This document shows positions 22,360 through 52,567 of a stretch of 64,000 nt of DNA, in pieces. The stretch lies in contig CAVOPH010000016.1 in the NCBI GenBank assembly GCA_963697775.1, positions 25,190-89,189 on the forward strand. The letters run 5' to 3'. Below the pieces are notes generated by a model. The model ran no database searches, was not told the DNA's origin, and worked only from the letters and a program-made list of their open reading frames with translations. How positions within the stretch are numbered: position 1 is the stretch's first letter; each line of letters begins with the position of its first letter. This DNA comes from an uncultured Acidobacteriota bacterium. GTDB lineage: Bacteria > Acidobacteriota > Vicinamibacteria > Vicinamibacterales > 2-12-FULL-66-21. Position numbers and translations under genes: made by a program.

Positions 22360-22590
22360 GAACCCCTGATCACTGATCACTTATCCTGAATCCCTGCTCC
22401 CCGAATCCCTGATCGTTGAATCCCTCATCCTCGCATCACTGGATCCACGAATCCTTGAATCGCACGAGTCTTCGACTACACGCAGTTCAGTTCAGCGGGC
22501 AGGCTCCAACGAGGCTGCAATTTCTGGATTCGACGATTGGAGGATTCGACGATTAGCGATTCTCGATCAGTGATCAGTGATCAGGGATTC
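22360..22590. repeat. Inverted heptamer-repeat element with 22-bp terminal inverted repeats
   Basis: gaacccctgatcactgatcact (22360-22381) matches the reverse complement of 22569-22590 at 21/22; internal GAATCC / GATTC units. Confidence 0.75.
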
Positions 22591-24560: not shown

Positions 24561-24573
24561 TCAACAGCCTCCA

Positions 24574-24710
24574 AAACGCCTGCGAGGTTAGCTGACGGGC
24601 TGGAGGTTGAAGGTCCTCCTCCGAAATAGTCGGATATGCCCCTGACGAGCCGCTGACTCGTCCACTGGTTCCCCCGCTCCGCGCGTCTGGCCGCGGATTC
24701 GGCTCGTTCG
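24574..24710 (-). ncRNA. c-di-AMP (ydaO/yuaA) riboswitch in the kup leader
   Basis: Minus strand: GCCGAATCC..GGAGCGGGGGAACCA..GGGGCATATCC..GGAGGAGG..CCTCCAGCCCGTCAGCTAACCTCGCAGGC, then GGAGG SD and the kup ATG. Confidence 0.9.
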
Positions 24711-24806
24711 AGCATACGCCGGTGGCCCGGACGCGTCAAAATACGGCCGCCGGCCACGATCCACTCGTCTCGTCGGCGGAGTCGGCCGTCAGAACGCGCG
24801 GGAGGA

Positions 24807-35103: not shown

Positions 35104-36327
35104 TCACCAGGTTCCTTTCTTGCCTCCGATCCACCACACCGCGCCGACGAGCGCGGTCGTCTGGCCGCGCTTCAGCACGTCGGTCGAACGGCTCGGAAAA
35201 AAGCTGGTGTCACTGGAGTCATGACGAAGTTCGCCGCGGATCAAGAATCCCTCGGCCACCTTGTGCTCGGCGGTGAGCGTGACTTCCTGGAGACCTTGAG
35301 AAACTCCGCCGAACAGTCCGCCGCTGTCGTCAAGGTACTCGTACCGCAGCGCGAAGCGCGCGGCAGCGAGCGGCTGATACCGTGCGTAGGCGGCAAAGCC
35401 GGTGAGCGTGGAGTTGGGATTGCCTTCCTGGAGCTGATTCGACGTGTGGTTCGCGTCAGCTCCCAGCGATACCCGGCTGGTTGGTGTGTAGGTGACGTAG
35501 GTGTCGAAAATGTGCAGCCACCCGTCGGGCCCGTCAGCCGCGCCGCCGTCAGGCTGTTCCTGGCCGAGGTAGTAGTTGATCGTCCAGCTGACGTTCTTCG
35601 ACGGTGTCACGACCGCGGCAAACTGGTGGGACTTGAACTCGTTGAAGTCCTCCGTCTGCTGCACGCCGTTGGTGAGCATGTACAACACGGTGATCCGATC
35701 GGTCAGCGTCACCTGGGTCCGGAGACCCGAGTGGTAGCCGGGAAGGAAGGCAAAGAGGAGCGACCGGGAGAAATGGTCGTCGTCTTTTGCGTAGTTGGTC
35801 TCGTAGCTGAAGTTCGAAGCGAACTTGCCGAAATCCACCTGCACGCGGCGCGAGCCCGGAAACACGTAAGAGCCGTACGCCTGCCACACATATCGGTATG
35901 CATCGGGCCTGGGCTCGTTGACCGACGAGCCCTGAGTGTTTTCCGTCGCCTCGCCGAACTGCAAATCGAGACGCAATCCGAAGGGCCGATTCTCTTTTCT
36001 ATCGGGCGCGCTTTCCACGACGAGCGCCGCCTGCTGGATGCCGAACGTGTTTGCGCGAGTGTCGTAAATTCGCAGAGTGTTCACGCGGTCAGGCGGCCGA
36101 TTCCAGTTGTACTCGTAGAAGCCCTCGAGCGTCGCGTTGAGGGTCCAGTGCGACAACGGATCATCCGGCTGCGCTGGATCCGCTGAGGTTTGTGCGTAGG
36201 CCGCCGGAATCGGAACCGCCAGGAAGCCGATGCTGACCGCCAGACCAGCTACTCTGAGGTAACGGAGTTCACAACGGAGGAACGAAGATAACGGAGACGA
36301 ACGGAAAAGATGCTCGCGGACGAGCAC
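35104..36327 (-). CDS. Putative outer-membrane beta-barrel porin (OmpL/BBP2-like); start uncertain
   Basis: Signal ending AAYAQ, FYEYNWNRP, DFGKF, LRYEYLDD, RGELRHD, C-terminal Trp. Confidence 0.8.
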   Translation of the reverse strand: MLVREHLFRSSPLSSFLRCELRYLRVAGLAVSIGFLAVPIPAAYAQTSADPAQPDDPLSHWTLNATLEGFYEYNWNRPPDRVNTLRIYDTRANTFGIQQAALVVESAPDRKENRPFGLRLDLQFGEATENTQGSSVNEPRPDAYRYVWQAYGSYVFPGSRRVQVDFGKFASNFSYETNYAKDDDHFSRSLLFAFLPGYHSGLRTQVTLTDRITVLYMLTNGVQQTEDFNEFKSHQFAAVVTPSKNVSWTINYYLGQEQPDGGAADGPDGWLHIFDTYVTYTPTSRVSLGADANHTSNQLQEGNPNSTLTGFAAYARYQPLAAARFALRYEYLDDSGGLFGGVSQGLQEVTLTAEHKVAEGFLIRGELRHDSSDTSFFPSRSTDVLKRGQTTALVGAVWWIGGKKGTW

Positions 36328-36379
36328 TTTTATCTTCGTTCGTCTCCGTTTGCTCCGTTCCTTCGTTGTGAACTCCGTT
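36261..36379. repeat. Imperfect palindrome of about 120 bp built of AACGGAG units
   Basis: aacggagttcacaacg (36261-36276) pairs exactly with cgttgtgaactccgtt (36364-36379); apex tgctcg-cgga-cgagca. Confidence 0.8.
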
Positions 36380-36562
36380 TCTCTGCTCAGTTCCGTTATC
36401 TCTCCGGGCAAATCCGATCGAGGGACTGAACGTGGCCGGAAAAAGCGTCGAGCGAGGGATGAGCAGTCCCCGGCGCGAATTGTCTCATTGTCGGCCGTAA
36501 ATGCATACACGAGTCGATTGACATAAGCTCGGAGAAAGGCGCAGGACGAGTCATTGCATCCC

Positions 36563-37519
36563 ATGACACATCATCACTCGGGCCATGGCCATCACCATTC
36601 CCACGGCCATGGCTCGGCGAGCGTGTCCAACCGAGTGCTGGGCGCCGCCGTCGCGGCGACGCTGGCATTCGTCATCGTCGAAGCGATTTCTGGCTGGATG
36701 GGTAACAGCCTGGCGCTGCTGTCCGACGCGGGGCACAACCTGGCGGATGTGGCGGCCCTGGGGCTCAGCTGGTATGCGCTCTGGATTGCCAGAAAGCCAT
36801 CGCATCAGGCGATGACGTTCGGGTATCACCGCGTCGGCGTGTTCGCCGCCCTCCTGAACGCCCTGTCGCTGGTAGTCATCGCGGCCTGGATTGGGTGGGA
36901 AGCGATCATCCGATTCCGTCATCCAGAGCCCGCGAGCGGCGGCCTGATGATAGGCGTGGCCGCTGCGGGGCTGGTGGTCAACACGGTCATTGGCTTGGGC
37001 CTGCGCCGTGCCTCGAAGCACGACATCAACGTCCGCAGCGCCTACCTGCACATGATGGGAGACGCGGTGTCTGCCCTCGGCGTCATGATCGCCGGCGTCC
37101 TGGTGGCGACTGCTCACATGCCCTTGGCCGACCCGATCGTGTCCCTCTTGATCGCGGCGTTGATTCTTTACAGCAGCTACGACGTGCTCAGGGAGAGTGC
37201 GGCGGTCCTGCTCGAAGGCACGCCCGCGGGCATGAACATGCCCGCGCTCATAGCGGCAATCAGAGGCGTCAGAGGCGTCCTCGATGTGCACGATCTACAC
37301 GTGTGGATGGTGGGCCCCGGTGTCATCGCCTGCAGCTGCCACATTGTCGTCGCCGAGCAGAGCATCCGAGAGGGACAGCAGGTGCTGCGAGCGGTCGTCC
37401 ATGACGTCGAACGCCTGTTTCACATCACCCATACGACGGTTCAGGTCGAAGTCGAAGGATGTGATGTAGACGACATGTACTGTGTGGCGTCACGGGTTGC
37501 CAGCGGACCACGGGCCTGA
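36563..37519 (+). CDS. Cation diffusion facilitator (CzcD/ZitB-like)
   Basis: His-rich N-terminus, SLALLSDAGHNLAD, TFGYHR, AYLHMMGD, HDLHVW, HTTVQVE. Confidence 0.93.
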   Translation: MTHHHSGHGHHHSHGHGSASVSNRVLGAAVAATLAFVIVEAISGWMGNSLALLSDAGHNLADVAALGLSWYALWIARKPSHQAMTFGYHRVGVFAALLNALSLVVIAAWIGWEAIIRFRHPEPASGGLMIGVAAAGLVVNTVIGLGLRRASKHDINVRSAYLHMMGDAVSALGVMIAGVLVATAHMPLADPIVSLLIAALILYSSYDVLRESAAVLLEGTPAGMNMPALIAAIRGVRGVLDVHDLHVWMVGPGVIACSCHIVVAEQSIREGQQVLRAVVHDVERLFHITHTTVQVEVEGCDVDDMYCVASRVASGPRA

Positions 37520-37542
37520 CAGTGTGCCATCAGCCTCGTCGG

Positions 37543-38688
37543 TCAAGGTGTTGGCTCACCAAGCGGTACGACCTGGATCGCGGCGTCGCGTACTTCCTCC
37601 AGGAACCTGTTGAGGGTCGAACCCTTCAGGAGAATTTCAAATCGGGTCCGCGCGCTCTGTCCAAAAATTACGTGCGTGATGCCCTCGCGCTGCGCGAACG
37701 CGATCAGGCCGTCCGCCGGGCGATCCGCTCTCACGCGCACTACCGTCGCGCCGAGTTCCTCGGCAAGTGCGATGTTCCGCTGCAACGCTTCCCGATCCCC
37801 AGCCCTGATCTGGCCGGGGGCTTCTCGGGGCGTCTCCACGTACACCGCGTACCACCGTGCCCCCAGCCGGCCAGCAATGCGCGCTCCCGTGCGAAGCACT
37901 CTCGGCGCATCGGCGTTGGAGCTCATGCAGACCATGACCCGTTCTGGAATGAGCGCCGGCTCGAGTCCTTCACGCTGCCGATGCGATGCCGCCTTCTCAC
38001 CCACTTCGTCGGCCACGGCGCGAAGGGCCAGTTCACGCAGCGTGGACAGGTTCGTTTCCCGGAAAAAGTTCGTGAGCGCCTGCTCGACCTTCTCGGGCTT
38101 GTAGATCTTGCCCTGCCGCAAGCGCGTACGGAGCTCCTCGACGGTGATGTCAACGTTGACGACCTCATCTGCGCGATCGAGGAATGTGTCTGGGACGGTC
38201 TCCCGAACACGCACGCCGGTCACGCGACCGACGGCATCGTTGAGCGTTTCGAGATGCTGGATGTTCACCGCCGTCATCACCCCGATGCCGGCGTCGAGGA
38301 TCTCGAACACGTCCTGATAGCGCTTTTCGTGGCGGCTGCCGGGGACGTTCGTGTGCGCGAGCTCGTCGATCATGCAGAGCGCCGGTTTTCGCGACAAGAT
38401 CGCCGCGACATCCATCTCCTCGAGGGTGACCCCGCGATAGTCGATCTTCCGGCGCGGAACGACCTCCAGGTCGCCGAGCTTCGCCTCGGTCTCCGCGCGT
38501 CCGTGGGTCTCGACGTATCCAATGACAACGTCGACGCCGTCACGCCGAAGTGCGTGGGCGTCCTCAATCATCGAATAGGTTTTGCCGACCCCGGGAGCGG
38601 CGCCGATGTAGATGCGGAGACGGGCGCGCTGGTCCGTCTGGATCTTGGCGAGCACCTGTTCGCCGGTGGGCCGGCTTCTGTCCTGCAC
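37543..38688 (-). CDS. kdpD: Stand-alone KdpD N-terminal domain + Usp domain (soluble half of a split KdpD)
   Basis: YIGAAPGVGKTY, VETHGR, DELAHTN, NIQHLE, RLRQGKIY, LRELALR, then a Usp domain; no TM or kinase. Confidence 0.93.
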   Translation of the reverse strand: MQDRSRPTGEQVLAKIQTDQRARLRIYIGAAPGVGKTYSMIEDAHALRRDGVDVVIGYVETHGRAETEAKLGDLEVVPRRKIDYRGVTLEEMDVAAILSRKPALCMIDELAHTNVPGSRHEKRYQDVFEILDAGIGVMTAVNIQHLETLNDAVGRVTGVRVRETVPDTFLDRADEVVNVDITVEELRTRLRQGKIYKPEKVEQALTNFFRETNLSTLRELALRAVADEVGEKAASHRQREGLEPALIPERVMVCMSSNADAPRVLRTGARIAGRLGARWYAVYVETPREAPGQIRAGDREALQRNIALAEELGATVVRVRADRPADGLIAFAQREGITHVIFGQSARTRFEILLKGSTLNRFLEEVRDAAIQVVPLGEPTP

Positions 38689-38725
38689 GGTTTCATCCTA
38701 GCTCGGCGTCTCAGCTCCGATACGG

Positions 38726-38767
38726 CTCTTTACGAACTCTTTATGCTTTTTTGGCTAACGGTTTAGC
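38726..38767 (+). promoter_or_regulatory. KdpE-like box A
   Basis: TTTACG-N5-TTTATG-N5-TTGGCT-N5-TTTAGC, 11-bp period. Confidence 0.65.
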
Positions 38768-38980
38768 GCTGAGGACGTTTGCCAACTCGATAGCGACGCT
38801 GATTCTTTCGGTCAATTGAATCGCGGCCGCGCGCGCTCGGAGTGCTATAGTCGCCTCACATCGAGACAGTCCGAAGTCGATCGGAACCCACCAACCGGGT
38901 TTTTCTGTCAGCCGGTTCGGTCGGGTCGGGGTTCGCCTGCGCTCCGCGCCGGAGCGTTTGGAATGAAAAAGCAGAGGACG

Positions 38981-39421
38981 ATGAAGATGCTGAAGAGAGT
39001 CTTGTTAGCCGGAGTCCTGGCCGCAGCCGTGAGCGGGACCGTCGCAGCCCAAGTGCACAAGTATTACTCGCCTGGCACGGTCTGGACCGTCACCATGATC
39101 AAAATCGCGTCCGGCATGGATCAGATGTACGTGCAGTATCTGGACGGTCAGTTCAAGAAGGGTGAGGATGCGTCGGTCAAGGCAGGGTTCCAGAAGTCGT
39201 ACAAGATCCTCCGGACGATGGACGATGGTGGTGCGTGGAACATGCTGATACTCAGGGAATATGCAAGCCTTGCCTCGCTCGAGGCAAACGAAGAGAAGGC
39301 CGATGCGCTCGCGCAGCAGGTCGAGGGCACCGACCAGGTCCAGATGCAGGGGTATCAGGACCGCAGCAAGTACCGCGAAGTCGTCGGCACCAAGTACGCG
39401 CGCGAGCTGATCCTCAAGTAG
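38981..39421 (+). CDS. Secreted hypothetical protein
   Basis: GAGG SD, signal peptide ending AAQ, biased codon use; TATAGT -10 candidate near 38846. Confidence 0.8.
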   Translation: MKMLKRVLLAGVLAAAVSGTVAAQVHKYYSPGTVWTVTMIKIASGMDQMYVQYLDGQFKKGEDASVKAGFQKSYKILRTMDDGGAWNMLILREYASLASLEANEEKADALAQQVEGTDQVQMQGYQDRSKYREVVGTKYARELILK

Positions 39422-39516
39422 CGGGTGATAGACGACGGCGGCATCCGCGCCGTCGTCGTCACCGCTCGCATCTGAATTCTTTCACCAGCGTTTTGCCGCT
39501 CACAAGAGGAACGACC

Positions 39517-39973
39517 ATGTACAACGCTGTGATAGTCGATCGGGTTGACCGCCTTCCTCCAAAGCCAGCCTGCCAGCCCGGACAAGATCGCCGTGATGTC
39601 TGTGGTGCATCAGTTCACCGATGCCTTCAACAAAGGGGACACGAAAACGGCGGCGGCCGCGTGTGCGGATCAAACGTCGATCATCGATGAATTCCCGCCC
39701 CACGAATGGCACGGCGCCGGCGGCTGTGCAAAATGGATGACCGACTACGACGCGGACGCCAAGAAGAATGGCCTCAGTGACGGACACGTCACCCTCGGTA
39801 CACCGAAGCACGTCAACGTCGTAGCGGATCGGGCCTACGTAGTCGTTCCGGCGGATTATGCGTACAAGGAAAAGGGAAAGCCTGTGAAGGAGACCGGCTC
39901 CATCTTCACGGTCGCCCTGCAGAAGGTTGTGACCGGCTGGCGCATCACCGGCTGGTCGTGGACCAAGAATTAG
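39517..39973 (+). CDS. SnoaL/NTF2-like protein; indel near the N-terminus
   Basis: FTDAFNKGD, IIDEFPPHEWHG, DRAYVVVP, GWRITGWSW; GAGGA SD before the ATG at 39517. Confidence 0.8.
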
Positions 39974-40030
39974 TCGTCAGCGCGCTCCTGCCAGCTTTCA
40001 TCCCAGCGTGCCACATTGGCGCGCCCGCGT

Positions 40031-40089
40031 CTCTTTACGAACTCTTTATGGTTTTTTGGCGAACCGTTTAGCCGTTCGAGGCTTAGCGT
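40031..40089 (+). promoter_or_regulatory. KdpE-like box B with -10 candidate TAGCGT
   Basis: TTTACG/TTTATG/TTGGCG/TTTAGC at 40034/40045/40056/40067, then N11 and TAGCGT (40084-40089). Confidence 0.65.
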
Positions 40090-40095
40090 CAGGCT

Positions 40096-40390
40096 GTGGA
40101 CAGGCCTGAAGACAGCGCTGTCAGCGCATCCGTCGAGACGGACGCGACCATCTCGCACTTCATTCCCTCGGTGGAATTGACGGGATCCCGTAACGAGAAG
40201 CTGCGGAAACTCGACACCCTGATCCTGCTATCTCGAGAAACTCCGCGCCAGCCTCGCGCGCGATACTCACAAAAGACGCCGTCCGTCGCCCGAGCGCGCA
40301 CGTCCGGTGTGGGGCTGGTTCGCGGCAGGCGTGGTGGTGGGAGCGGTCGTCGTTTTACTGTTCTTCGCCGGCGGCCGCTGGGCCTTATGA
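40096..40390 (+). CDS. Putative ~97-aa tail-anchored membrane protein (one indel near 40228)
   Basis: MDRPEDSAVSASVETDATISHFIPSVELTGSRNEKLRKLDTLIL/YLEKLRASLARDTHKRRRPSPERARPVWGWFAAGVVVGAVVVLLFFAGGRWAL*; GTG 6 nt after the -10. Confidence 0.55.
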
Positions 40391-40439
40391 CTTCTTTACG
40401 AAGTCTTGACCGCCTTCTTACGGCTGGGCGACCTACGCT
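40384..40439 (+). promoter_or_regulatory. KdpE-like box C with -10 candidate TACGCT (kdp operon promoter)
   Basis: CTTATG/TTTACG/TTGACC/CTTACG at 40384/40395/40406/40417, then N11 and TACGCT. Confidence 0.7.
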
Positions 40440-40479
40440 GAATGACAGACGAAAGGAGCCTTTTGTGGCACTGAGAGAG

Positions 40480-41245
40480 ATGACTCGCGCACTGCTGGCG
40501 GTCGGATTGTTCGGACTCGTACCGGTCGCCGCGTACGCGACGCCGTCCACGACGTACTGGGCGCCCTCCACGGCCTCGTGTCAGGCGCGGGGAGTCCCGC
40601 ACGTCACCTACGACACGTACTTCTGGAAGGGCCCGGCGGCCGGCGCTCAAGGCGCGACCGGCTATCCCATCGACACGGGCCTGACCGCGGGCGTTCTGCC
40701 GTTCGAGAAGGTGCAGGGTGAAGTCGGCTTCGACCTGCTGCTCCCCAGCCGTATCCGTTCTTCCTCAACATGAAGCTCTGCACGCCGGAGTCCTCGTTGT
40801 TCAAAGGGTCGCCCGGCATCAGTTTCGGCATCTACAACTTGGGCTTCAAGGATGATGTCAGCAATTACAACGTGCTGCATCTCATGTTCCAGAAGGCGTT
40901 CCCAAAAGGCGGCTACTTTGCGGCGGGCGTGTACCACGGTTTGAACAGACACGCTCATGACCAACAGCGACGGCAACGTCGTCAAGACCGGCGCGATGAT
41001 CGCCGCGGTCTCGCCCGACATCCAAGATCGGTCTCAAAGGTCTGAAGAAGATCAACATCGCCACGGATGTGCAGACGGGCAAGAACGTGCTCGGAGCCTG
41101 GGGCTTCGGCACGAACATCTATTTTGCTGACAACGTGTCGCTCCTGGTTGGCCCGGTGTTCTTCCTGGACAAGAACCTGCAGCCGGGTGGCACCAAGTAC
41201 ATGTGGACGGCGCAGCTCGATATCGACATCCCGCTGGGTCGTTGA
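40480..41245 (+). CDS. Secreted, probably outer-membrane beta-barrel protein leading the kdp operon; about 3 indels
   Basis: Signal MTRALLAVGLFGLVPVAAYA, TPSTTYWAPST; alternating strands (EVGFDL, ISFGIYN, GFGTNIYF, WTAQLDIDIP). Confidence 0.7.
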
Positions 41246-41280
41246 GCAACGGTGCTGTGTTTGAGGAAGGCAGGATACAC

Positions 41281-41370
41281 GTGTCCGACTTCATTTTCGT
41301 CGCGCTGACAATTCTCTTCTTCGCCGTGAGCATCGGCTACGTGGCCGTGTGCGACCGGCTCATGAAGTGA
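41281..41370 (+). CDS. 29-aa single-TM peptide upstream of kdpF
   Basis: MSDFIFVALTILFFAVSIGYVAVCDRLMK*, with AGGA SD; not in the ORF track. Confidence 0.75.
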   Translation: MSDFIFVALTILFFAVSIGYVAVCDRLMK

Positions 41371-41378
41371 GGTGACAC

Positions 41379-41469
41379 GTGGGCATCGACACCGCTCTCA
41401 CTCTAGCTCGTCAGCATTCTCACGCTCGGTTACCTCGTGCTCGCGATGCTGAAACCGGAGAAGTTCTGA
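41379..41469 (+). CDS. kdpF: KdpF subunit (one extra base near 41405)
   Basis: MGIDTALTL/LVSILTLGYLVLAMLKPEKF*, ending 1 nt before the kdpA ATG; GAGG SD. Confidence 0.88.
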
Positions 41470-41470
41470 C

Positions 41471-43253
41471 ATGACTCTCAACGGCTGGCTACAGATTCTC
41501 TTCTTTCTGCTCGCCATCTTTCTCGTGACGCCGGTGCTTGGCGGCTACATGGCGCGCGTGTTCAACCGGCAGCGCACGTTCCTCGATCCGGTGATGCGCC
41601 CGCTCGAGCGGCTCGTCTACCGGCTGACCGGTGTCAACGAGGCGCGCGAGATGCGCTGGACCGAGTACTCGGTCGCGCTGCTCCTCTTCAGCGTCGTCTC
41701 GATGCTGGTGCTGTACGTGATGCAGCGTGTGCAGGCGGTGCTGCCGTTCAACCCGCAGGGATTTGCCGGCGTCGCGCCGGATCTCGCCTTCAACACCGCC
41801 GCGTCGTTCACCACCAACACGAACTGGCAGGCGTACAGCGGCGAGTCGACGATGAGCTACTTCACGCAGATGGCGGGGCTCGCGTATCACAACTTCGTGT
41901 CGGCGGCGGTCGGCATCTCGGTGGCCATCGCGTTCATTCGCGGCATCGCCCAGAAAGAGAAAGACACGATCGGCAACTTCTGGGTGGACCTGGTGCGCGC
42001 GTCGCTCTGGGTGCTGCTGCCGATCTCGATCGTCGGCGCTTTGTTCCTGGTCTCGCAGGGCGTGGTGCAGAACCTCAAGCCGTACGACAAGGTCGCGGTC
42101 GTCGATCCGCAGACCGTGACGACGACCGGCGCCGACGGCAAGCCGCAGTCGCAGAAGGTCACCGAACAGACGATCGCGCAGGGGCCGATCGCCTCGCAGG
42201 AGATCATCAAGCAGTTCGGCACGAACGGAGGCGGGTTCCTCAATGCGAACAGCGCGCACCCGTTCGAGAACCCGACGCCGCTGACGAACTTCCTCGCGAT
42301 GTTCGGCATCTTCGCGATTTCGTCGGGGCTCACCTACACGCTCGGCTCGATGACCGGGTCGAAGCGTCATGGCTGGGCGGTCTGGGCGGCGATGGCGTTT
42401 CTCTTCCTCGCGGGCGTCACGACGGCGTACTGGGCTGAAGCGCGGGGGAACCCGATGCTGACCGCTGCCGGCGCCGACCAGACGACAACGGCGACGTCGC
42501 CTGGCGGCAACATGGAGGGCAAAGAGGTCCGTTTCGGCATCGCCAACACGGCGCTCTTCGCCACCGTCACCACCGACGCGAGCTGCGGCGCCATCAACGG
42601 CTGGCACGACTCGTTCACCCCGCTCGGCGGGCTCGTCCCGCTCGCCAACATCGAGTTGAGTGAAGTGGTCTTCGGCGGTGTCGGCGCGGGCATGTACGGC
42701 GTGTTGGTCTACATCATTCTCTCGGTCTTCATTGCCGGATTGATGGTCGGGCCGAACACCGGAATATCTCGGCAAGAAGATTCAGGCGTTCGAGGTGCAG
42801 ATGGCCATGTTGACCGTGCTGATCTTCTCGCTGCTCATCCTGGCCTTCACGGCGACGTCATCGGTGTCGCCGAGCTTCGGGACCTCGAGCATCTTCAACC
42901 CCGGCCCGCACGGGTTGTCCGAAATGCTCTACGCCTACTCGTCGGCCGCGGCGAACAACGGCTCGGCGTTCGGCGGCATCAGCGTGAACACCCACTGGTA
43001 CAACACGACGCTCGGGTTGACGATGCTGTTCGGACGGTTCTTCATGATCATTCCGCCGCTGGCGATCGCTGGAAGCCTGAGCCGGAAGAAGAAGATTCCC
43101 GAGTCGCTCGGCACGTTCCCCGTGACGACGCCGCTCTTCACGGCGTTGCTCGTCGGCGTGATCGTGATCGTCGGGGCGCTGACGTTCTTCCCGGCGCTCA
43201 GCCTGGGCCCGATCGTTGAGCACTTCATGATGAACGCGGGGCAGGCCTTCTAA
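41471..43253 (+). CDS. kdpA: K+-transporting ATPase subunit A; indel near 42750
   Basis: [58 protein letters not shown]. Confidence 0.97.
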
Positions 43254-43344
43254 GGAATGCTGATTGTTGAATGCTGAATGCTGATTGATCTGGCTGAGAC
43301 GAAAACAGACAACCGCTGACAGACAGGTTCAAGGACGAGTTTCC

Positions 43345-45447
<2,103 letters not shown>

Positions 45448-45458
45448 GAGGCACTATC

Positions 45459-46040
45459 ATGAACATCACACGCAACCTCATCTCGGCCATCCTGATGACG
45501 ATCGTCACCACGGTGATCCTGGGGGTGATTTATCCCCTGGCGATCACGGGCATCGCGCAGGTCGCGTTTCCCAGTCAGGCCAACGGTCAGCTGATCGAGC
45601 GGAACGGATCCGTGATCGGGTCGCGGATCATCGGGCAGGGATTCTCGTCGCCGGGATACTTTCGTCCGAGGCCGTCAGCCGCCGGAACGGGCTACGACGC
45701 GGCCAATTCGGCGGGCAGCCAGCTCGGGCCCACGAACAAGAAGCTGATCGACAACGTCAAGGCCAATGTCGAAGCCGCACGCAAGGAGAACCCGAACGCG
45801 CCTGTCCCCATCGACCTCGTGACGACGTCGGCCTCCGGATTCGATCCGCACATCACGCCCGCCGCGGCCGACTTTCAGGTACCGCGGGTGGCCCGCGAGC
45901 GTGGCGTCTCCGAGGCGGACGTGAGGCGTCTGGTGGATGCCAACACGCAAGGGCGGCAGCTCGGCTTCTTTGGAGAGGCGCGGGTCAACGTGCTCGAGCT
46001 GAATCTCGCGCTCGATTCGCAGTATCCGCTCAAGAAGTAG
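45459..46040 (+). CDS. kdpC: K+-transporting ATPase subunit C
   Basis: [55 protein letters not shown]. Confidence 0.96.
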
Positions 46041-46165
46041 TCAGGGCTTGCGAAACACGACGAGCCACCAGAGGTCCTCGTCGCCGGATCGATCGATGAA
46101 CGGATCCTCGCGAAGGACCGTCTGGAATCCTTGCTGATTGATTTGACGTTCGGCCACGGCCCGGG

Positions 46166-46696
46166 TCATCTCGTGATGCCCCTCGGCCGTGGTAGCGGGT
46201 TTCGACCACCACTGCGCGGGGCCCGATCGACGACGACCAGCCTGCCGCCAGGACGCATCGACGTGTAGAGCGCTTTCAGAATCTGCTCCGGCGCGGTCAG
46301 CTCGTGATAGGTGTTCGCGATCAGCACGGCATCGACTGGCGTCGGCGGAAGCTTCGGATCGTCGACACGGCCGCGAATGACGTGAAGGTTCCAGTGCCCG
46401 CCGAGCACGGCTCGGATCCATAGAAAGGCCAGCGATTGCCTGCGGAGATCGACCGCGAGGACGCGGCCGTTCGGGGCCACGCGAGGGGCGATCTTCAATG
46501 AGAAGTAGCCCGCGCCCGAGCCCAGATCGACGACCGTCATCCCGGGATGCAGATCGAGTTGTCGAAGGATCTCGTCCGGCCGTTGCCACGAGTCGCGTTC
46601 GCGTTCCACCCTGTCGAGCGTGCCCAGCGTACGCACCACTTCTTCCAGCACAAACACGGCTGGAACCACGATAACGACCAACGTGAGGATTCCCAC
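46166..46696 (-). CDS. Class I SAM-dependent methyltransferase with N-terminal hydrophobic segment
   Basis: ERDSWQRP, VVDLGSGAGYF, NTYHEL, RPGGRLVVVD. Confidence 0.85.
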   Translation of the reverse strand: MGILTLVVIVVPAVFVLEEVVRTLGTLDRVERERDSWQRPDEILRQLDLHPGMTVVDLGSGAGYFSLKIAPRVAPNGRVLAVDLRRQSLAFLWIRAVLGGHWNLHVIRGRVDDPKLPPTPVDAVLIANTYHELTAPEQILKALYTSMRPGGRLVVVDRAPRSGGRNPLPRPRGITR

Positions 46697-46878
46697 ACAG
46701 ACGTTTCGTCACGTGACATCGATCCTGTCAGAAACGGCGAGTCGGGAACCGGTCACCGATGAACCGGTCATGCTATCGTCTGCTTTCGTGAGGTTTCAGC
46801 TCGTCAACCAGTCTGTTTGCTCGGCCCCTGATTCTGCGTCGCGCTACCCGGCGTCGGGCTGTGTGCTCGCGCGCGGTC

Positions 46879-47720
46879 ATGATGAGCGTGGCGACGAGCT
46901 GCACCAACTCGCCGGAAACGGCGCTCGAACGGCTCATGGAATCGCGCCGCCTCGCGGCGGATCTCCTGGTTCAGTTCACCAAGGCCGCTGACGCCTCGAA
47001 TCGCGCGGTGATGGCGGACACCGACGAAGCCTCCGTCGCGTTCGCCCGTGAGGCCGAGCAGGCCACGCAGGCGGTCGAAAAAGACGCCGCCGCGCTGGAT
47101 CCGATTCTTCGCGGCCTCGGCTACTCGAACGAAACGCGGCTGCTCGAGGAATTCAACAGCCGCTTTGCGGAGTATCGCGCGCTGGACCGCAAGATCCTCG
47201 AGCTGGCGGTCGAGAACACGAATCTCAAGGCGCAGCGTTTGTCGTTCGGGCCCGCTCAAGAGGCAGCCGACGCGTTCCGCGATTCCGTTGCGGCCGTCGC
47301 GCCACTGGATCCGGCGAAGGATACGTGGCGCGTGAAGGCGCTGGCCGCGACCGCTATCGGCGGCCGTGCGCGAGATCCAGGTGCTTCAGGCGCCACACAT
47401 CGCGGAAGCCGACGAGGCCGTGATGACTCGAATCGAGAAACAGATGGCAACCGAGGAAGCGGCGGCCCGGAGCGCGTTGGCGAACCTGGGAACCGTGGCG
47501 CAGCCCGCATCCCGTCCGCAGCTCGACGCCGCCACCGCCGCGCTCGACCGGTTCATGGGCATCAACGCTCAAATCATCGAGCTGTCCCGCCGCAACACGA
47601 ACGTTCGCTCGCTGGCGCTGGCGCTGGGCCAGAAGCGGACGCTTCACCGCCGCGTGCGAGGACCGCCTGCATGCGCTTCAGGACGCTCTGGCGAAGCGCG
47701 AGTTCACTGCCACTCGATAG
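46879..47720 (+). CDS. Stand-alone chemoreceptor-like helical (4HB/HBM-like) ligand-binding protein, possibly a lipoprotein; indels, start uncertain
   Basis: Internal duplication ILELAVENTNLKAQRLS / IIELSRRNTNVRSLALA; ATSC near the N-terminus; no signalling domain. Confidence 0.6.
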
Positions 47721-47726
47721 GATCCA

Positions 47727-47831
47727 GATTCTGCTGGGTTCTACAAGGTTCTGCTGGGTTCTACGAGGTTCGTGGCTTCAACGCTTCGACGAACGAACCT
47801 TGCCGAACCCGGTAGAAACCAGTAGAACCCG
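47727..47831. repeat. Inverted array of 10-nt repeats between convergent genes
   Basis: gggttctac aaggttctgc tgggttctac gaggttcg ... gaacgaacc..ccgaaccc ggtagaaacc agtagaaccc. Confidence 0.85.
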
Positions 47832-47835
47832 GTCT

Positions 47836-48519
47836 TCAGAGGTCCGCAAATCGATATCCAACCCAGGGTTCCGTGAGGATGTATCTGGGAGCGGACGGAT
47901 TCGGCTCGATTTTCTTTCGCAGCGATCCGACCAGCACTCGCAGGTGCTCGGGCTGATCGACGAAATGCGGGCCCCAGATCGCCTTGAGGATGGTCCGATG
48001 GGTCAGCACGCGCCCGGGGTGCTGCGCCAGAAAGGTGAGCAGCTCGAATTCCTTGGGAGTCAGGCGCACTTCTTCGCCGTCTCGGAGAACCCGGAATCGT
48101 TCGCGATCGATGACGAGGCCGCCGCGCACGATCGGTTCGGTCGCCGGTGACGGATTCTCGATCCGACGCAGCGTCGCGCGAATACGTGCCAGCAGTTCAT
48201 CGGTCCCGAACGGCTTCGTCACGTAGTCGTCCGCACCCGCGTCCAGTGCGCCGACCTTGTCGCCTTCGGCCCCGCGCGCGGACAGCACCAGGATCGGTAC
48301 GTTCGACGTCTCTCGCACCAGCCGGCACACTTCGACACCATCGATGTCCGGCAAACCCAGATCGAGCACGATCAGATCCGGTTTGTCGCGCTCGACGGCT
48401 TCCAGCGCGGCTCGACCGGTCATGGCCGAGAAGACCTCGTATCCTCGCGCCCGCACCAGCGGCGCCAGCGTGCCGAGGATGTTCGGTTCGTCGTCGACGA
48501 TGAGGATGCGCGCCGCCAT
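47836..48519 (-). CDS. kdpE: KdpE response regulator (OmpR family)
   Basis: LDLGLPDIDG, LDAGADDYVTKPF, LTPKEF, VLTHR..IWG, LRKKIE..P.YILTEPWVGYRF. Confidence 0.93.
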   Translation of the reverse strand: MAARILIVDDEPNILGTLAPLVRARGYEVFSAMTGRAALEAVERDKPDLIVLDLGLPDIDGVEVCRLVRETSNVPILVLSARGAEGDKVGALDAGADDYVTKPFGTDELLARIRATLRRIENPSPATEPIVRGGLVIDRERFRVLRDGEEVRLTPKEFELLTFLAQHPGRVLTHRTILKAIWGPHFVDQPEHLRVLVGSLRKKIEPNPSAPRYILTEPWVGYRFADL

Positions 48520-48521
48520 CG

Positions 48522-50030
48522 CTACTGCGCCACCGTGACCGGACGCACGGCTCCAGGCACGACGATCGAAAACCTCGCGCCGGCCCCGGGCACGTTCTCG
48601 GCCCAGACACGTCCACCCGCTGCGGCCAGTAGTCCCCGCGTGATCGAGAGTCCCATTCCGGTGCCGAAGGTAGCCTGGCGTGCGGCGCGTCCTCGGTAGA
48701 ACCGTTCGAAGAGATGATCGAGCTCGGCCGGATCGAGTCCGGGGCCCTGATCGGTAACCGAGACGTGCAGCCCGTCACGTTCCACCTGGGCGCCCACGAC
48801 GATCGCCTTGGCCGGGGGCGAATACAGGGCCGCGTTTTCGAGCAGGTGCGACAGTGCGACCGATGCCAGTCTCGGATCGATCTCCACCGTCATGTCGGTG
48901 TCGGCATCGACGCTGAGCGCGTGCCCCTCCAGCGTGTGTCTGACGAGCGCGACCGCCGCATCGACCACGTCGGCGGCGGCAACCCACTGCCGTTCGACGT
49001 GAATCGCGGCCGCGTCGATCCGGGCCATGTCCAGGATGTCCTGGAACAGGCGCGTCAGCCGATCGAGCTCGGCCATCGCGGCGCCAGCCTGGACGCGGCG
49101 ATCCTCGGCCGCGAGCTCGCCTCGAAGGTTCTCGACCGCGGCTTTGATCGCCGTCAACGGCGTTCTCAGGTCGTGGCTCAGTGATGCCAGCAAGGTCGCC
49201 CCGAGATCGGCCTTCTGTCTGACGAGCTCAGCCGCGTCACGTTCCGCGAGGAACTGCGCCCGCTCGATCGCAATCGCGACGACGCCGGCGACGGCGTCGA
49301 GGGTGCCGATGTCGAGCGACGGCGAGGCCGCAGCGAGCAGACCGACCGGCCGGGTTCCGTGTCTCAACGGAACGATCGACACCTCATTGTTCGCTCCGAC
49401 GCGGATGTGGCCGCCGTACGCCCGTTGATGCGCGTCGAATTCGAGCGTCCCGCGGGCCTTGGCCAGGGCCGTATTCAGCACGTTCTCGTCGATCGAGACC
49501 TCCTCGCTCGCGCCCTGGTGGATGTGCCAGCCGTGATCGCCGGGAAGGCAGATCGCGACGCGCTCCAGTTCGAAGCGACGGGCGACATGCCGCGCGAGCA
49601 CGTCGATGGCACTCGCCGTTTCAGTGGTCAACAACACATCCCGTGTCAGATCGAACAGGCGCGTCACTTCGTTGCGGCGCGCGATCGCCTCGCGGGCCTT
49701 GTCCTGCGCCGCCGCTGACAGATTGCTGGCAATCACCGCGACGATCAGGAACGCCACCAGGGCGATCCAGTTCTGGGGATCGGCGATCGTAAACGTGCCG
49801 ACCGGAGGGAGAAAGAAGAAGTTCAGCGTGAGCATCGCGACGATCGACACCACGATCGCGATCCGAAGACGTGCGAGGGTCGCGGCGCCGAGCACGACCA
49901 GCAGCAGCGCGAGCGCAACGGTCGTCGGGCTCACGTCGCGCAGCGCGCGGAGCGCAGCGGTCACCGCAGCAAGCGCGACGATGCTCCCAAGAAAGACGAT
50001 GAGGTCGCGTGTCGGTCTCCGACGGAGCAT
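48522..50030 (-). CDS. kdpD: Membrane sensor kinase half of KdpD (DUF4118 4TM - GAF - HisKA - HATPase)
   Basis: NFFFLPPVGTFTIADPQNW, SHDLRTPLT, LLENAALYS, DQGPG, GTGMGL; directly upstream of kdpE. Confidence 0.92.
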   Translation of the reverse strand: MLRRRPTRDLIVFLGSIVALAAVTAALRALRDVSPTTVALALLLVVLGAATLARLRIAIVVSIVAMLTLNFFFLPPVGTFTIADPQNWIALVAFLIVAVIASNLSAAAQDKAREAIARRNEVTRLFDLTRDVLLTTETASAIDVLARHVARRFELERVAICLPGDHGWHIHQGASEEVSIDENVLNTALAKARGTLEFDAHQRAYGGHIRVGANNEVSIVPLRHGTRPVGLLAAASPSLDIGTLDAVAGVVAIAIERAQFLAERDAAELVRQKADLGATLLASLSHDLRTPLTAIKAAVENLRGELAAEDRRVQAGAAMAELDRLTRLFQDILDMARIDAAAIHVERQWVAAADVVDAAVALVRHTLEGHALSVDADTDMTVEIDPRLASVALSHLLENAALYSPPAKAIVVGAQVERDGLHVSVTDQGPGLDPAELDHLFERFYRGRAARQATFGTGMGLSITRGLLAAAGGRVWAENVPGAGARFSIVVPGAVRPVTVAQ

Positions 50031-50086
50031 GTTCTCAAGGCAATTCTGACATCTCACGCCGGCCGTGCGGCATCGCCGCTCAACTT

Positions 50087-50131
50087 CTTATCGATTCTTT
50101 ACGGATTTCTTACGCGCACGGGCGGTAAGGT
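50087..50131 (+). promoter_or_regulatory. KdpE-like box D with -10 candidate TAAGGT
   Basis: CTTATC/TTTACG/CTTACG at 50087/50098/50109, then N11 and TAAGGT. Confidence 0.7.
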
Positions 50132-50148
50132 TGAAGAGCAGGCCGAAC

Positions 50149-50493
50149 ATGCAGATGCTCATTTCGCTCCCCGCGTCCGGCGCCCCTTCGCGGGAACTCG
50201 GTCCGATCCTGTCGGACTATCTGGCGCTCGATCGTGCACGAATCGTCCGGCGGCTGATGGTGGCGCGTTTCGGCGTGCTGGCGCTGTTGGCGGCACTGAT
50301 CGAGACCGTCTTTCGCGGGTTCTCTCCCTTCGCCCGCGTGGTCACCGTCGCCCTGTGCCTCGTTCCTCCCGCCTGGGCACGGATCGTCGAACTCGGGCGC
50401 GAGCATCGCCTGTCGCGGCGCCTCGAACGCGTCGATGGAGTCGTTACCCACAAATATGTCCCTCGGTCCGAAGGCCATCAGGGCTCCGCATAA
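50149..50493 (+). CDS. Small two-TM hypothetical membrane protein
   Basis: 114 aa; hydrophobic FGVLALLAALIETVF and VVTVALCLVPPAW; follows box D. Confidence 0.65.
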   Translation: MQMLISLPASGAPSRELGPILSDYLALDRARIVRRLMVARFGVLALLAALIETVFRGFSPFARVVTVALCLVPPAWARIVELGREHRLSRRLERVDGVVTHKYVPRSEGHQGSA

Positions 50494-50516
50494 GAAAGTC
50501 GTAAAAAGTTCATAAG
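50489..50516 (-). promoter_or_regulatory. KdpE-like box E (reverse orientation), upstream of the kimA leader
   Basis: Minus strand CTTATG-N5-TTTACG-N5-CTTATG; CATAAT -10 candidate at 50557. Confidence 0.65.
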
Positions 50517-50567
50517 TACGGGCTGCCGCGCTCGCCGAAATCCGGCGGTTTCCTCGCATAATCACGA

Positions 50568-50718
50568 CAGTGCCAAATTCGCTTCGCTGGTCGAAGCGAT
50601 GCGGGGGACCCACTCGAGCATTCCGCTCGTCGGGGCGTATCCCACCGAAGTGCCGCAAGGCGCGAAGGTGGGTAGAGGATTCCAACCTCGAGCCCGTCAG
50701 CTAACCCCGTCGGCCGAT
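50568..50718 (+). ncRNA. c-di-AMP (ydaO/yuaA) riboswitch in the kimA-like leader
   Basis: GCCAAAT-hairpin-TGCGGGGGACCCA..TCGGGGCGTATCCC..GGGTAGAGG..CCTCGAGCCCGTCAGCTAACCCCGTCGGC, then GGAAGGA and ATG. Confidence 0.9.
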
Positions 50719-50728
50719 TGGAAGGACC

Positions 50729-52567
50729 ATGCCGGCAGAAGGCCTGCTCTCGCAAGCCAAGCGGCTCGTCGTCGGCGAGCCGATTCCGTCACATCTCGCA
50801 CACCATGAACGGTTCTCGCGATTCACCGGCCTCGCGGTGCTGTCCTCCGATGCCCTGTCGTCGGTGGCCTACGCGACGGAAGAGATCCTGCGCGTCCTCG
50901 TTCTGGTCAGCGTTGGCGTGCTGAGCTTCGCGACGCCGATCGCGTTCGTCATCGCCGCCATTCTGGCCATCGTCGTCTTTTCCTATCGACAGACCATTCA
51001 CGCCTACCCGAGCGGCGGGGGCGCCTACATCGTCGCGAAGGACAATCTCGGAGAGATGCCGGCGCTCATCGCCGCGGCGTCGCTGCTCATCGACTACGTG
51101 CTCACGGTGGCGGTCAGCATCGCGGCCGGTGTCGCGGCCCTCACGTCGGCCTTCCCGCAATGGCACGTGAACCGCGTCGAGATGACGCTGGGGTTCGTGC
51201 TGGTCCTGATGCTCGGCAATCTGCGCGGGATCAGAGAGTCGGGCCGGATCTTTGCGATCCCCACGTACATGTTCGTGGTCAGCCTTCTCGGCTTGATCGC
51301 GGTCGGGACGTGGCGGGCGCTCAGCGGCACGATTCATCCGATCGCCGCCGTGCAGCCGATTCAGCCTGCCGGCGACACGCTGACCCTGTTCCTGCTTCTG
51401 ACTGCGTTTTCCAACGGGTGCACGGCGATGACCGGCGTAGAGGCGGTGTCGAACGGCGTTCCCGCATTCAAACCGCCGGAAGCGAAGAACGCCGCGGCGA
51501 CGATGGTGATGATGGCGGTGCTGTCGATCACGATGTTCGTCGGCATCACGCTGCTCGCGCACGCGTATCACATCGTCCCGAGCGAGCAGGAAACCGTCGT
51601 GTCGCAGATTGCGCGAGGCGTCTTCGGCGGACGAGGGTGGCCGTACTACGCCGTCCAGGGCGCGACGATGCTGATTCTCGTCCTGGCCGCGAACACCGCG
51701 TACGCTGATTTTCCGCGGCTCGCGTCGATCCTCGCGCGCGATCGCTACGTGCCGCGACAGCTCATGAACCAGGGGGATCGCCTCGCGTTTTCGAACGGCA
51801 TCATCGGGCTGAGTGCCTTCGCGTCAATTCTGCTCGTCGCTTACGGCGGCGATACACACTCGCTGATTCCGCTCTACATGATCGGCGTCTTCGTGTCGTT
51901 CACGTTGTCGCAGGCCGGCATGGTCGTCCACTGGCGAAAGCTGAAAGGGCCGGGATGGAGGACCAGCGCGTTCATCAACGGCCTCGGCGCTGTCGTCACC
52001 GGCATCGTCCTCGTCGTCGTCGCCCTCACGAAGAGCCGCGAAGGCGCATGGATCATCCTGCTGCTCATTCCGGTCCATGTGTTTCTGTTTCGAGCGACCC
52101 GCCGACATTACGACGAAGTCGCGCGGCAGCTGTCGCTCGACGGGTGGACAAATGGCACGAGGCACCGCAACACCGTGCTCGTGCCGATGAGCGGCGTGCA
52201 CCGGGCCGTGGTCCAGGCGCTCGAGTACGCGAAGACGTTGTCGCCAGACGTGCGAGCGGTCTACGTCAACATCGATCCGGCCGCGACGGAACAGCTGTCG
52301 CGTCAGTGGAAGAAGTGGGGCGACGGGGTTCCGCTCGTGGTGCTCGAGTCACCGTACCGCTCGCTGATGGAACCGCTGCTCGAATACATCGATCAGGTCG
52401 ATGCCGCGCAACCGGACGATTTCGTGACGATCGTCTTACCCGAGTTCGTGCCGGCGCGCTGGTGGCATCACGTCTTCCACAACCAGCGTGCGCTGCTAAT
52501 CAAGGGTGCGCTGCTCTTCCGGCCGAACGTCGTCGTCACCAGTGTGCCGTTTCATCTGAATCGTTGA
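50729..52567 (+). CDS. kimA: KimA/YdaO-like APC-superfamily K+ transporter
   Basis: SSDALSSVAYATEEI, SYRQTIHAYPSGGGAY, LTVAVS, TGVEAVSNGV, SPYRSL, LPEFV..WWH..FHNQ. Confidence 0.9.
   Translation: MPAEGLLSQAKRLVVGEPIPSHLAHHERFSRFTGLAVLSSDALSSVAYATEEILRVLVLVSVGVLSFATPIAFVIAAILAIVVFSYRQTIHAYPSGGGAYIVAKDNLGEMPALIAAASLLIDYVLTVAVSIAAGVAALTSAFPQWHVNRVEMTLGFVLVLMLGNLRGIRESGRIFAIPTYMFVVSLLGLIAVGTWRALSGTIHPIAAVQPIQPAGDTLTLFLLLTAFSNGCTAMTGVEAVSNGVPAFKPPEAKNAAATMVMMAVLSITMFVGITLLAHAYHIVPSEQETVVSQIARGVFGGRGWPYYAVQGATMLILVLAANTAYADFPRLASILARDRYVPRQLMNQGDRLAFSNGIIGLSAFASILLVAYGGDTHSLIPLYMIGVFVSFTLSQAGMVVHWRKLKGPGWRTSAFINGLGAVVTGIVLVVVALTKSREGAWIILLLIPVHVFLFRATRRHYDEVARQLSLDGWTNGTRHRNTVLVPMSGVHRAVVQALEYAKTLSPDVRAVYVNIDPAATEQLSRQWKKWGDGVPLVVLESPYRSLMEPLLEYIDQVDAAQPDDFVTIVLPEFVPARWWHHVFHNQRALLIKGALLFRPNVVVTSVPFHLNR

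Follow-up and report, generated by a model that had tools for sequence, protein, structure and literature searches.

In the window studied here, a 64,000-nucleotide (nt) stretch from an uncultured Acidobacteriota bacterium, positions 35,104 to 52,567 hold a K+ homeostasis locus built around a split KdpD sensor kinase. We consider it fairly probable that at low K+ its response regulator KdpE switches on the kdpFABC pump operon together with an unnamed outer-membrane barrel (barrel 2) and small accessory proteins, and that cyclic di-AMP (c-di-AMP) separately shuts off the transporters KimA and Kup and probably the pump as well. Much of this architecture is already published (PMC11018627, PMC7231039, PMC5401905); what is new is a lipoprotein and the link, through regulatory boxes, between K+ control and an unnamed barrel that is a candidate cation channel. 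An earlier note, made from the letters alone, had proposed an extended K+-starvation regulon here, and profile matches and reading frames located the two barrels, the CDF transporter, the split KdpD, kdpFABC and kdpE that it listed. Four further genes of the span, for a lipoprotein, a methyltransferase, a 146-residue secreted protein and a SnoaL protein, are missing from the note's list.

The regulatory evidence comes from five KdpE-like boxes, all present as the note had proposed, which are the five strongest sites in a matrix scan of the 5.46-Mb assembly (67% complete; the window is its contig C16). They score 25–31 bits, as against 16.9 for the best site elsewhere in the assembly, and each is an array of three or four YTTAYG-type half-sites with an 11-bp pitch. 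A strict two-half-site pattern gave three matches genome-wide, two of them in this cluster, with 0.19 expected. The matrix was built from 22 half-site pairs, using the sites of seven relatives only; such training on orthologous sites inflates the sensitivity, though not the specificity seen here. The boxes show what identifies a KdpE-type site, namely direct repeats, a position upstream of kdpF and confinement to the kdp cluster. No site scoring above zero was found by the matrix scan before kup, the BBP2 barrel gene, the CDF gene, the SnoaL gene or the lipoprotein gene.

From the arrangement of the boxes, three of them are placed to act as promoters. Box 2 (40034..40089, + strand, four half-sites) is followed by the −10 hexamer TAGCGT and faces the small gene orf97; box 3 (40384..40439, +, four half-sites) has TACGCT and faces barrel 2, the peptide gene pep29 and kdpFABC; and box 4 (50087..50131, +, three half-sites) has TAAGGT and faces orf114. 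In all three a TAnnnT hexamer lies exactly 11 nt past the last half-site, and this geometry is kept in relatives despite diverged spacers, for box 2 in three (G006, G014 and G015), for box 3 in five and for box 4 in two. Box 3 is likely to be the kdp operon promoter. Box 5 (50489..50516, − strand, three half-sites) runs in reverse to kimA, toward kdpD-C, with a conserved CATAAT about 40 nt beyond its end. Box 1 (38729..38767, +) lacks a −10 hexamer at +11. Since boxes 1 and 2 form a 45-nt direct repeat, 91% identical, on either side of a 1.3-kb insert, the five boxes stand as sites and not as independent ones: there are four ancestral sites, and box 1 is a duplicate of box 2.

The core of the system is of a known kind. 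The genes kdpF, kdpA, kdpB and kdpC (41379..46040, +) form one operon, and KdpB retains TGES(162) and DKTGT. The soluble half of the kinase, KdpD-N (37543..38688, −; serine-kinase domain PF02702 plus Usp domain PF00582), has its Walker motifs A (GAAPGVGKT) and B (DE) intact. The histidine-kinase half, KdpD-C (48522..50030, −), was identified by profile match as four transmembrane (TM) helices followed by GAF, HisKA and HATPase domains, and its H-box His is invariant. For kdpE (47836..48519, −) the best PDB match is E. coli KdpE (4kny), and the equivalents of the DNA-contact residues R193, R200 and T215 are kept. These proteins are recognizable as a KdpFABC pump and as a split KdpD consisting of an ASK chain and a histidine-kinase chain, in which the W39 position is Tyr.

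Barrel 2 (40465..41245, +), the first gene of the kdp operon, encodes a predicted 12-stranded outer-membrane barrel of a family with 434 representatives at 50% clustering. It has no Pfam or NCBIfam family (none for 32 members at E 0.01) and no profile match to the BBP2, Gcw_chp/TorF, KdgM or YjbH Pfam families, and its nearest named Atlas clusters, YjbH and DUF3034, can serve as no more than leads. An AlphaFold2 (AF2) model of an orthologue is a 12-stranded barrel with a mean predicted confidence (pLDDT) of 89, for which a fold search gave Z 15–17, tied among several unrelated 12-strand families. The best folds in that search were COG4313 (4rl8), KdgM (4fqe), FapF and VhGalP (8xua), at Z 16–17 and 6–10% identity; with NanC included the identities span 4–11%, and the top matches had Z 17.0 (root-mean-square deviation 3.8, 205 aligned), 16.6 (2.7, 167) and 16.0. 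The modelled fold of barrel 2 is similar to these five; KdgM and NanC carry anionic sugars and are basic-lined, whereas the barrel-2 lumen is predicted to be acidic, with about eight acidic and two basic positions by strand parity. The lumen acids D26, E62, D66, D177, D228 and D230 are invariant in 32 sequences.

Among 49 barrel-2 loci, in which 58 of the 127 listed neighbours and four kdp-side genes were checked against Pfam, eight have the barrel directly 5′ of kdp genes, 31 are amtB/glnA/glnK/glnD clusters and ten lie elsewhere. A box stands upstream of barrel 2 in six of the eight kdp loci and in none of the 38 others (46 loci with enough upstream DNA). In a tree built from 32 intact sequences (5 from K+, 20 from nitrogen and 7 from other contexts), the K+ context needs four changes, at least three of which are forced by well-supported branches, and K+ and nitrogen members are intermixed within one well-supported clade. 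K+ and NH4+ have similar radii. The simplest reading, which gene context and the predicted acidic lumen point to, is that barrel 2 would be an outer-membrane K+/NH4+ channel. This barrel, unnamed, with a predicted acidic lining and with a KdpE-like box just where it has joined a kdp operon, is a defined and testable channel candidate.

A second barrel gene, BBP2 (35104..36267, −; PF07642, E 6e-59, 200 bits against a cut-off of 26.2), opens the locus, its start codon being uncertain owing to a palindromic repeat at the 5′ end. The protein is 84% identical to its orthologue in G015, where the gene directly follows kdpD-N; here an antisense CDF gene and the palindromic repeat part the two, and BBP2 has no box of its own. 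Its place in the regulon holds as a link to kdp across the phylum and does not hold as a box-controlled gene in this genome. Our synteny sample comprised 60 relatives, 16 of them with kdpA, and up to 20 kb around kdpA, some loci being clipped by contig ends; BBP2 occurs in four of the 16 kdp loci. In a phylum sample of 250 Acidobacteriota genomes, 82 of them kdpA-positive, BBP2 lies within 1.2 kb upstream of kdpA on the same strand in 21 of the 82, and it occurs at all in 51 of the 82 as compared with 18 of the 168 other genomes, although kin in this sample are not independent. Seven strong BBP2 loci away from kdp were found in the 60 relatives, four beside amtB/glnK/glnD, two beside a sigma-54 activator and one in a setting that does not fit either class clearly. 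One locus (L060:6704-8753) has BBP2 and barrel 2 in tandem ahead of glnD. In G005 a third unnamed barrel-like gene (L127:459-1376) sits between kdpD-N and a kdpC remnant; this genome gave no kdpA hit and keeps the lipoprotein, kdpE and kdpD-C.

The crossing of the outer membrane by K+ and NH4+ at micromolar levels is usually ascribed to general porins. There remains a real, if minor, chance that K+ uptake does not depend on the barrels, which would then act as general porins in starvation or osmotic stress, or conduct NH4+ only, and would occur with kdp on account of a common demand for greater outer-membrane permeability. The 31 nitrogen clusters among the 49 barrel-2 loci fit this explanation, as do the other substrates carried by the closest folds (COG4313, KdgM, FapF) and the induction of a BBP2 gene by ammonium limitation in Kuenenia, mentioned in the accessible text of PMC7438415. 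What it accounts for poorly is the repeated independent placement of barrels first in kdp operons behind a KdpE-like box, and the acidic lumen suits small cations. We therefore keep the K+/NH4+ channel as the preferred reading of barrel 2.

The three small membrane proteins of the note are taken to be orf97, pep29 and orf114. The product of orf97 (40096..40390, +; 52 homologue clusters, with a frameshift near 40228) is a tail-anchored membrane protein with an invariant soluble motif, ISHFIPSVELxGS, and one C-terminal TM helix, and the stop codon of the gene overlaps box 3. Because the −10 hexamer ends 6 nt before its GTG (40084–40098), likewise in G014 and G015, the orf97 mRNA is probably leaderless. 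The second KdpF-like single-TM peptide, pep29 (41281..41370, +), belongs to no family and precedes kdpF here as in 13 of 15 relatives' kdp loci. The two-TM protein orf114 (50149..50493, +; 42 homologue clusters) lies between kdpD-C and kimA, and each of the six genomes in which it was found has it there, with kdpD-C on one side and riboswitch-kimA on the other; two of these genomes gave no kdpA hit, and it is therefore tied to KimA or the kinase rather than to the pump. The same constancy of place (6/6) rules out that orf114 and its inverted boxes are a mobile element. In orf97 and orf114, third codon positions show about twice as many changes as either of the first two. Among the 16 kdp loci, orf97 occurs in three, orf114 in two and kimA in seven. 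Modelling of orf97 in complex with KdpD-N and with the TM-GAF part of KdpD-C gave a score of 0.00, the partner fold being uncertain, and counts neither for nor against such contacts. We infer that orf97 and orf114 may be feedback modulators.

The lipoprotein gene (46858..47720, start approximate, +; PF12729, 40.5 bits) encodes a stand-alone, helical-bimodular-like protein of double four-helix type, 294 residues long, with a lipobox Cys; the lipobox pattern is present in 76 of 80 homologues. Its AF2 model is all-helical (pLDDT 89), and the best structure matches are the sensor domains of McpS (TM-score 0.44), PilJ and TorS, all at about 0.4. It is found in 11 of the 60 relatives, linked to kdp in nine and beside a chromate transporter in two, and in six of the 16 kdp loci. 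Metagenome counts were made on the best 80 of 357 loci, of which 68 with a 500-nt flank were informative: 39 of the 68 have K+ genes, or 22 of 37 clusters at 80% identity. Within the 80 loci the gene lies directly 5′ of kdpD-C in 13, 3′ of kdpC in 12 and 3′ of kdpD-N in six. A box is found upstream of it in 26 of 77 loci, as against one of 65 downstream controls, and the same box type heads lipoprotein-kdpD-C-kdpE operons in metagenome loci. Five homologues are longer, and three of these are single sequences fused to domains of adjoining K+ genes. The lipoprotein may provide split KdpD kinases with a further input. In five loci (L169, L170, L178, L179 and L218) it is divergent from a gene for a 150-residue Usp-like protein, in the vicinity of amtB or of a probable cation/proton antiporter gene.

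The c-di-AMP branch is also present as the note had described it. A riboswitch of the ydaO class (50561..50729, +; RF00379, 60.9 bits) precedes kimA (50729..52567, +; B. subtilis KimA 6s3k, E 1e-167), and another (24562..24714, −; 68.1 bits) precedes the frameshifted kup (22581..24560, −; PF02705, E 2.9e-73), which lies 10.5 kb from position 35,104 and has a Shine-Dalgarno-like GGAGG right behind its aptamer. Both are full length, above the gathering threshold of 38 bits and 5′ of a K+ transporter. The folding of the kimA leader gave z −1.95, a value that does not settle the switch mechanism. A diadenylate cyclase gene is present, and c-di-AMP riboswitches number three in the whole genome; the third (L050; G000:C3:237346-237498, −, 58.6 bits) precedes a frameshifted gene for a membrane-anchored protein that has no Pfam match and looks SPFH/band-7-like by eye. 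By hand count KimA keeps R337, Y118, N237, V457, P479, H579, N580 and Q581, that is, eight of the nine c-di-AMP-related residues named in the available text of PMC10284832.

KdpE control of kup is rejected for this genome, since there is no box upstream and the best matrix score there is −9 bits. The note's proposal of dual control holds in that both arms are present, and mainly as a division of labour, with box 5 running in reverse to kimA: because kdpFABC has no riboswitch (in agreement with the accessible text of PMC6488665), and because KdpE would act on the pump operon and c-di-AMP on kimA and kup, the two controls would mostly run in parallel. Transcription from box 4 could read through orf114 into kimA. 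Since the same box type faces kdpD-C operons elsewhere and, in the relative G027, riboswitch-kimA, box 5 might serve either kimA or kdpD-C. The second messenger probably acts on KdpB too, and its binding by the Usp domain of KdpD-N is plausible. In L039, L044 and L046 (from G060, G057 and G039) kdpD-C and kdpE are immediately preceded, on their own strand, by a c-di-AMP riboswitch and kup, so that in these families kdpDE itself may be under riboswitch control. These three loci, with L040, L041, L065 and L067, have a divergent kdp type in which the genes run kdpA-kdpC-kdpB and KdpA is about 42% identical; as this type occurs in the same order of bacteria, at least two kdp lineages circulate there. 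In L031, L034 and L045 two tandem KdpD-N-like genes stand behind kdpC.

Taken together, these results suggest the following course of events. At low K+ the TM-GAF-histidine-kinase half of KdpD would sense the shortage, as known from E. coli, and KdpE would be phosphorylated; KdpE could then bind the half-site arrays before the −10 hexamers and activate the orf97, barrel2-pep29-kdpFABC and orf114 transcripts. Barrel 2, or BBP2 in other lineages, would raise the flux of K+ into the periplasm for KdpFABC, and under nitrogen control the barrel-2 family would serve AmtB, as context and acidic lumen suggest. The lipoprotein would be co-expressed with kdpC, kdpD-N or kdpD-C/kdpE and likely tune the split sensor from the periplasm, which is the weakest step. 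At high K+, c-di-AMP would turn off kimA and kup through their riboswitches and inhibit KimA directly, and would likely stimulate soluble KdpD-N to phosphorylate KdpB at Ser162; both effects are established elsewhere, and the residues concerned are present here. As a more general and tentative idea, Kdp in diderm soil-type bacteria might be a trans-envelope K+ scavenger in which a dedicated outer-membrane K+/NH4+ channel, recruited from interchangeable barrel families and switched between KdpE and nitrogen control, supplies KdpFABC, while a chemoreceptor-like lipoprotein gives the split KdpD a periplasmic input and small membrane proteins induced by KdpE give it feedback. If true, the Kdp system of the textbooks would come to span the envelope.

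Several observations weigh against this picture. The matrix was trained on close kin, one of the six barrel-2 box matches is a training locus, and the loci are not independent. The lumen positions of barrel 2 were assigned from strand parity, not from model coordinates, and most kdp loci lack barrel 2, the 16 relatives having one intact copy and one remnant; likewise, 61 of the 82 kdpA-positive genomes lack BBP2 directly upstream of kdpA. Both orf97 and orf114 occur almost exclusively in one genus, with 4 and 5 positive genomes, respectively, out of 111 in the family, and each has an internal deletion in the closest relative, G015. For the lipoprotein, 29 of the 68 informative loci have no K+ gene and mixed neighbours, four of them near amtB; here, moreover, its gene lacks a box, and an antisense methyltransferase gene stands between it and kdpC. 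The S. aureus KdpD Usp motif for c-di-AMP is SxS-x20-FTAxY, and alignment to PDB 7ji4 gives M-S-S...WYAVY here as against S-G-S...FTAIY; in KimA, S582 is Arg. The putative roles of the accessory genes are read from comparative genomics.

Some of these points would also fit an ordinary split-KdpD locus whose accessories merely collect there, inheriting kdp promoters and having no part in K+ uptake, an explanation that we find rather improbable for the set as a whole. It does hold for the CDF, secreted-protein and SnoaL genes, the accessory content differs in nearly every relative, and close kin show deletions or truncations of orf97, orf114 and barrel 2; if the accessories were inert, the locus would still illustrate well an architecture known from earlier work. 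It does not readily explain why unrelated barrel families occupy the same first operon position, why the box accompanies barrel 2 only into kdp contexts, why orf97 and orf114 each have a conserved box and −10 hexamer with third-position-biased changes, or why the lipoprotein remains with kdp genes across several gene orders. We therefore retain the view that the accessory set (barrel 2, the lipoprotein and the small membrane proteins) is lineage-variable and likely belongs to the KdpE regulon.

Three other genes of the span are passengers, on the evidence of their neighbourhoods. The CDF metal-efflux transporter (36563..37519, +; PF01545/PF16916) occurs in none of the 16 kdp loci, and its best homologue in five close relatives is 37% identical, so that it is rejected as a member. 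The inserted block of sec146, encoding the 146-residue secreted protein, and SnoaL (38981..39973, +) lies between boxes 1 and 2; neither gene is found in the 16 kdp loci, the block is about 46 kb from kdp in G014, and sec146 is on another contig in G015. Control of sec146 by box 1 is ruled out by the missing −10 hexamer at +11 and by the block's location elsewhere in kin. The extended regulon proposed in the note therefore survives for the barrels and the small membrane proteins, through boxes 2–4 with their conserved −10 hexamers and comparative genomics, and is lost for the CDF; similarly, the synteny check that it suggested links barrels, lipoprotein and small proteins to kdp in some relatives and leaves CDF, sec146 and SnoaL unlinked. 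The SAM methyltransferase gene (46022..46696, −), antisense between kdpC and the lipoprotein gene, is weakly linked to kdp (two of 16 kdp loci, and behind kdpE or kdpC in nine of 80 lipoprotein loci).

Frameshifts interrupt kdpA, kdpF, kup, barrel 2, orf97, the lipoprotein gene and many further genes, including serS. Contigs of related strains show single-base differences at 40228, 40748, 40946, 41022, 42748 and 47359, and it is at these six positions that the frames of orf97, barrel 2, kdpA and the lipoprotein gene are broken. Since serS is broken too and related contigs differ at the breaks, the breaks look like assembly errors, true pseudogenes being ruled out on the same grounds, and intact orthologues were therefore taken for folds and searches. 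A dispersed palindromic repeat (36261..36379, no strand; 43-nt arms, 91% identical; 14 loci in the genome) overlaps the BBP2 start. It is one of three REP-like repeat families, the others being at 43251-43330 and 47726-47835, with about 14, 155 and 85 genome loci, respectively. A tRNA gene lies at 27338-27424 (Rfam, 59.3 bits). A scan for sigma-70 promoters and terminators gave no excess over shuffles, and a sequencing-run search listed no RNA dataset, all shares being at most 0.17. In the literature searched, mainly the texts of open-access papers, no experiment on a barrel linked to kdp or on the lipoprotein was found; text from a Caulobacter preprint (10.1101/2023.07.05.547876) and from PMC13534187 contained nothing of relevance.

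An 11-bp repeat pitch and a site just before the −10 hexamer are common in the OmpR/PhoB family, as in PhoB. That another regulator of this family, not KdpE, binds the boxes is very unlikely: pitch and position are family-wide rather than KdpE-specific and the half-site is YTTAYG instead of E. coli TTTAYA, but every strong site in the assembly falls in this cluster, the adjacent regulator has KdpE as its best PDB match, and the TTTA bases reported as critical in the available text of PMC3264566, the first four of the E. coli site, are largely kept. According to that text the E. coli site consists of two 6-bp repeats, TTTATA and TTTACA, 5 bp apart. The boxes resemble it in being AT-rich 6-bp direct repeats with a 5-bp spacer upstream of kdpF, and differ in having three or four YTTAYG half-sites, several sites per cluster and a last half-site 11 nt before the −10 hexamer, in contrast to −72 to −50 in E. 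coli (PMC3264566).

Regarding the kinase, the accessible text of PMC11018627 reports that split KdpD, with a KdpD/Usp serine kinase and a TM/GAF/histidine-kinase chain, is most common in Acidobacteriota and Chloroflexota and that c-di-AMP stimulates a short Deinococcus chain (from D. geothermalis). The present system shares the two-chain layout, Walker A/B, KdpB TGES162, the H-box His and a diadenylate cyclase, whereas its kdpD-N is divergent from the pump operon and shares its boxes instead of lying downstream; barrel, lipoprotein or small-protein accessories are not mentioned in that portion of the paper. For the lipoprotein, LprF/LprJ of M. tuberculosis, which modulate KdpD (as cited in the available text of PMC5401905), offer a precedent for accessory lipoproteins of KdpD; the likeness is one of role, and the protein here has a predicted McpS/TorS-like helical sensor fold. 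The kdpZYABCXDE cluster of C. acetobutylicum (as cited in the same text) also has two genes before kdpA, a likeness of position. As in B. subtilis (accessible text of PMC10284832 and PMC6488665), riboswitches precede kimA and kup, but the host here is diderm and kimA adjoins a complete KdpDE system. Finally, a BBP2 porin lies beside kdp in Leptospirillum (PMC7231039, available text), so that one Pfam family appears in a K+ setting in this genus and in an NH4+ setting in Kuenenia; these are single-genus remarks, and barrel 2 belongs to another, unnamed family.

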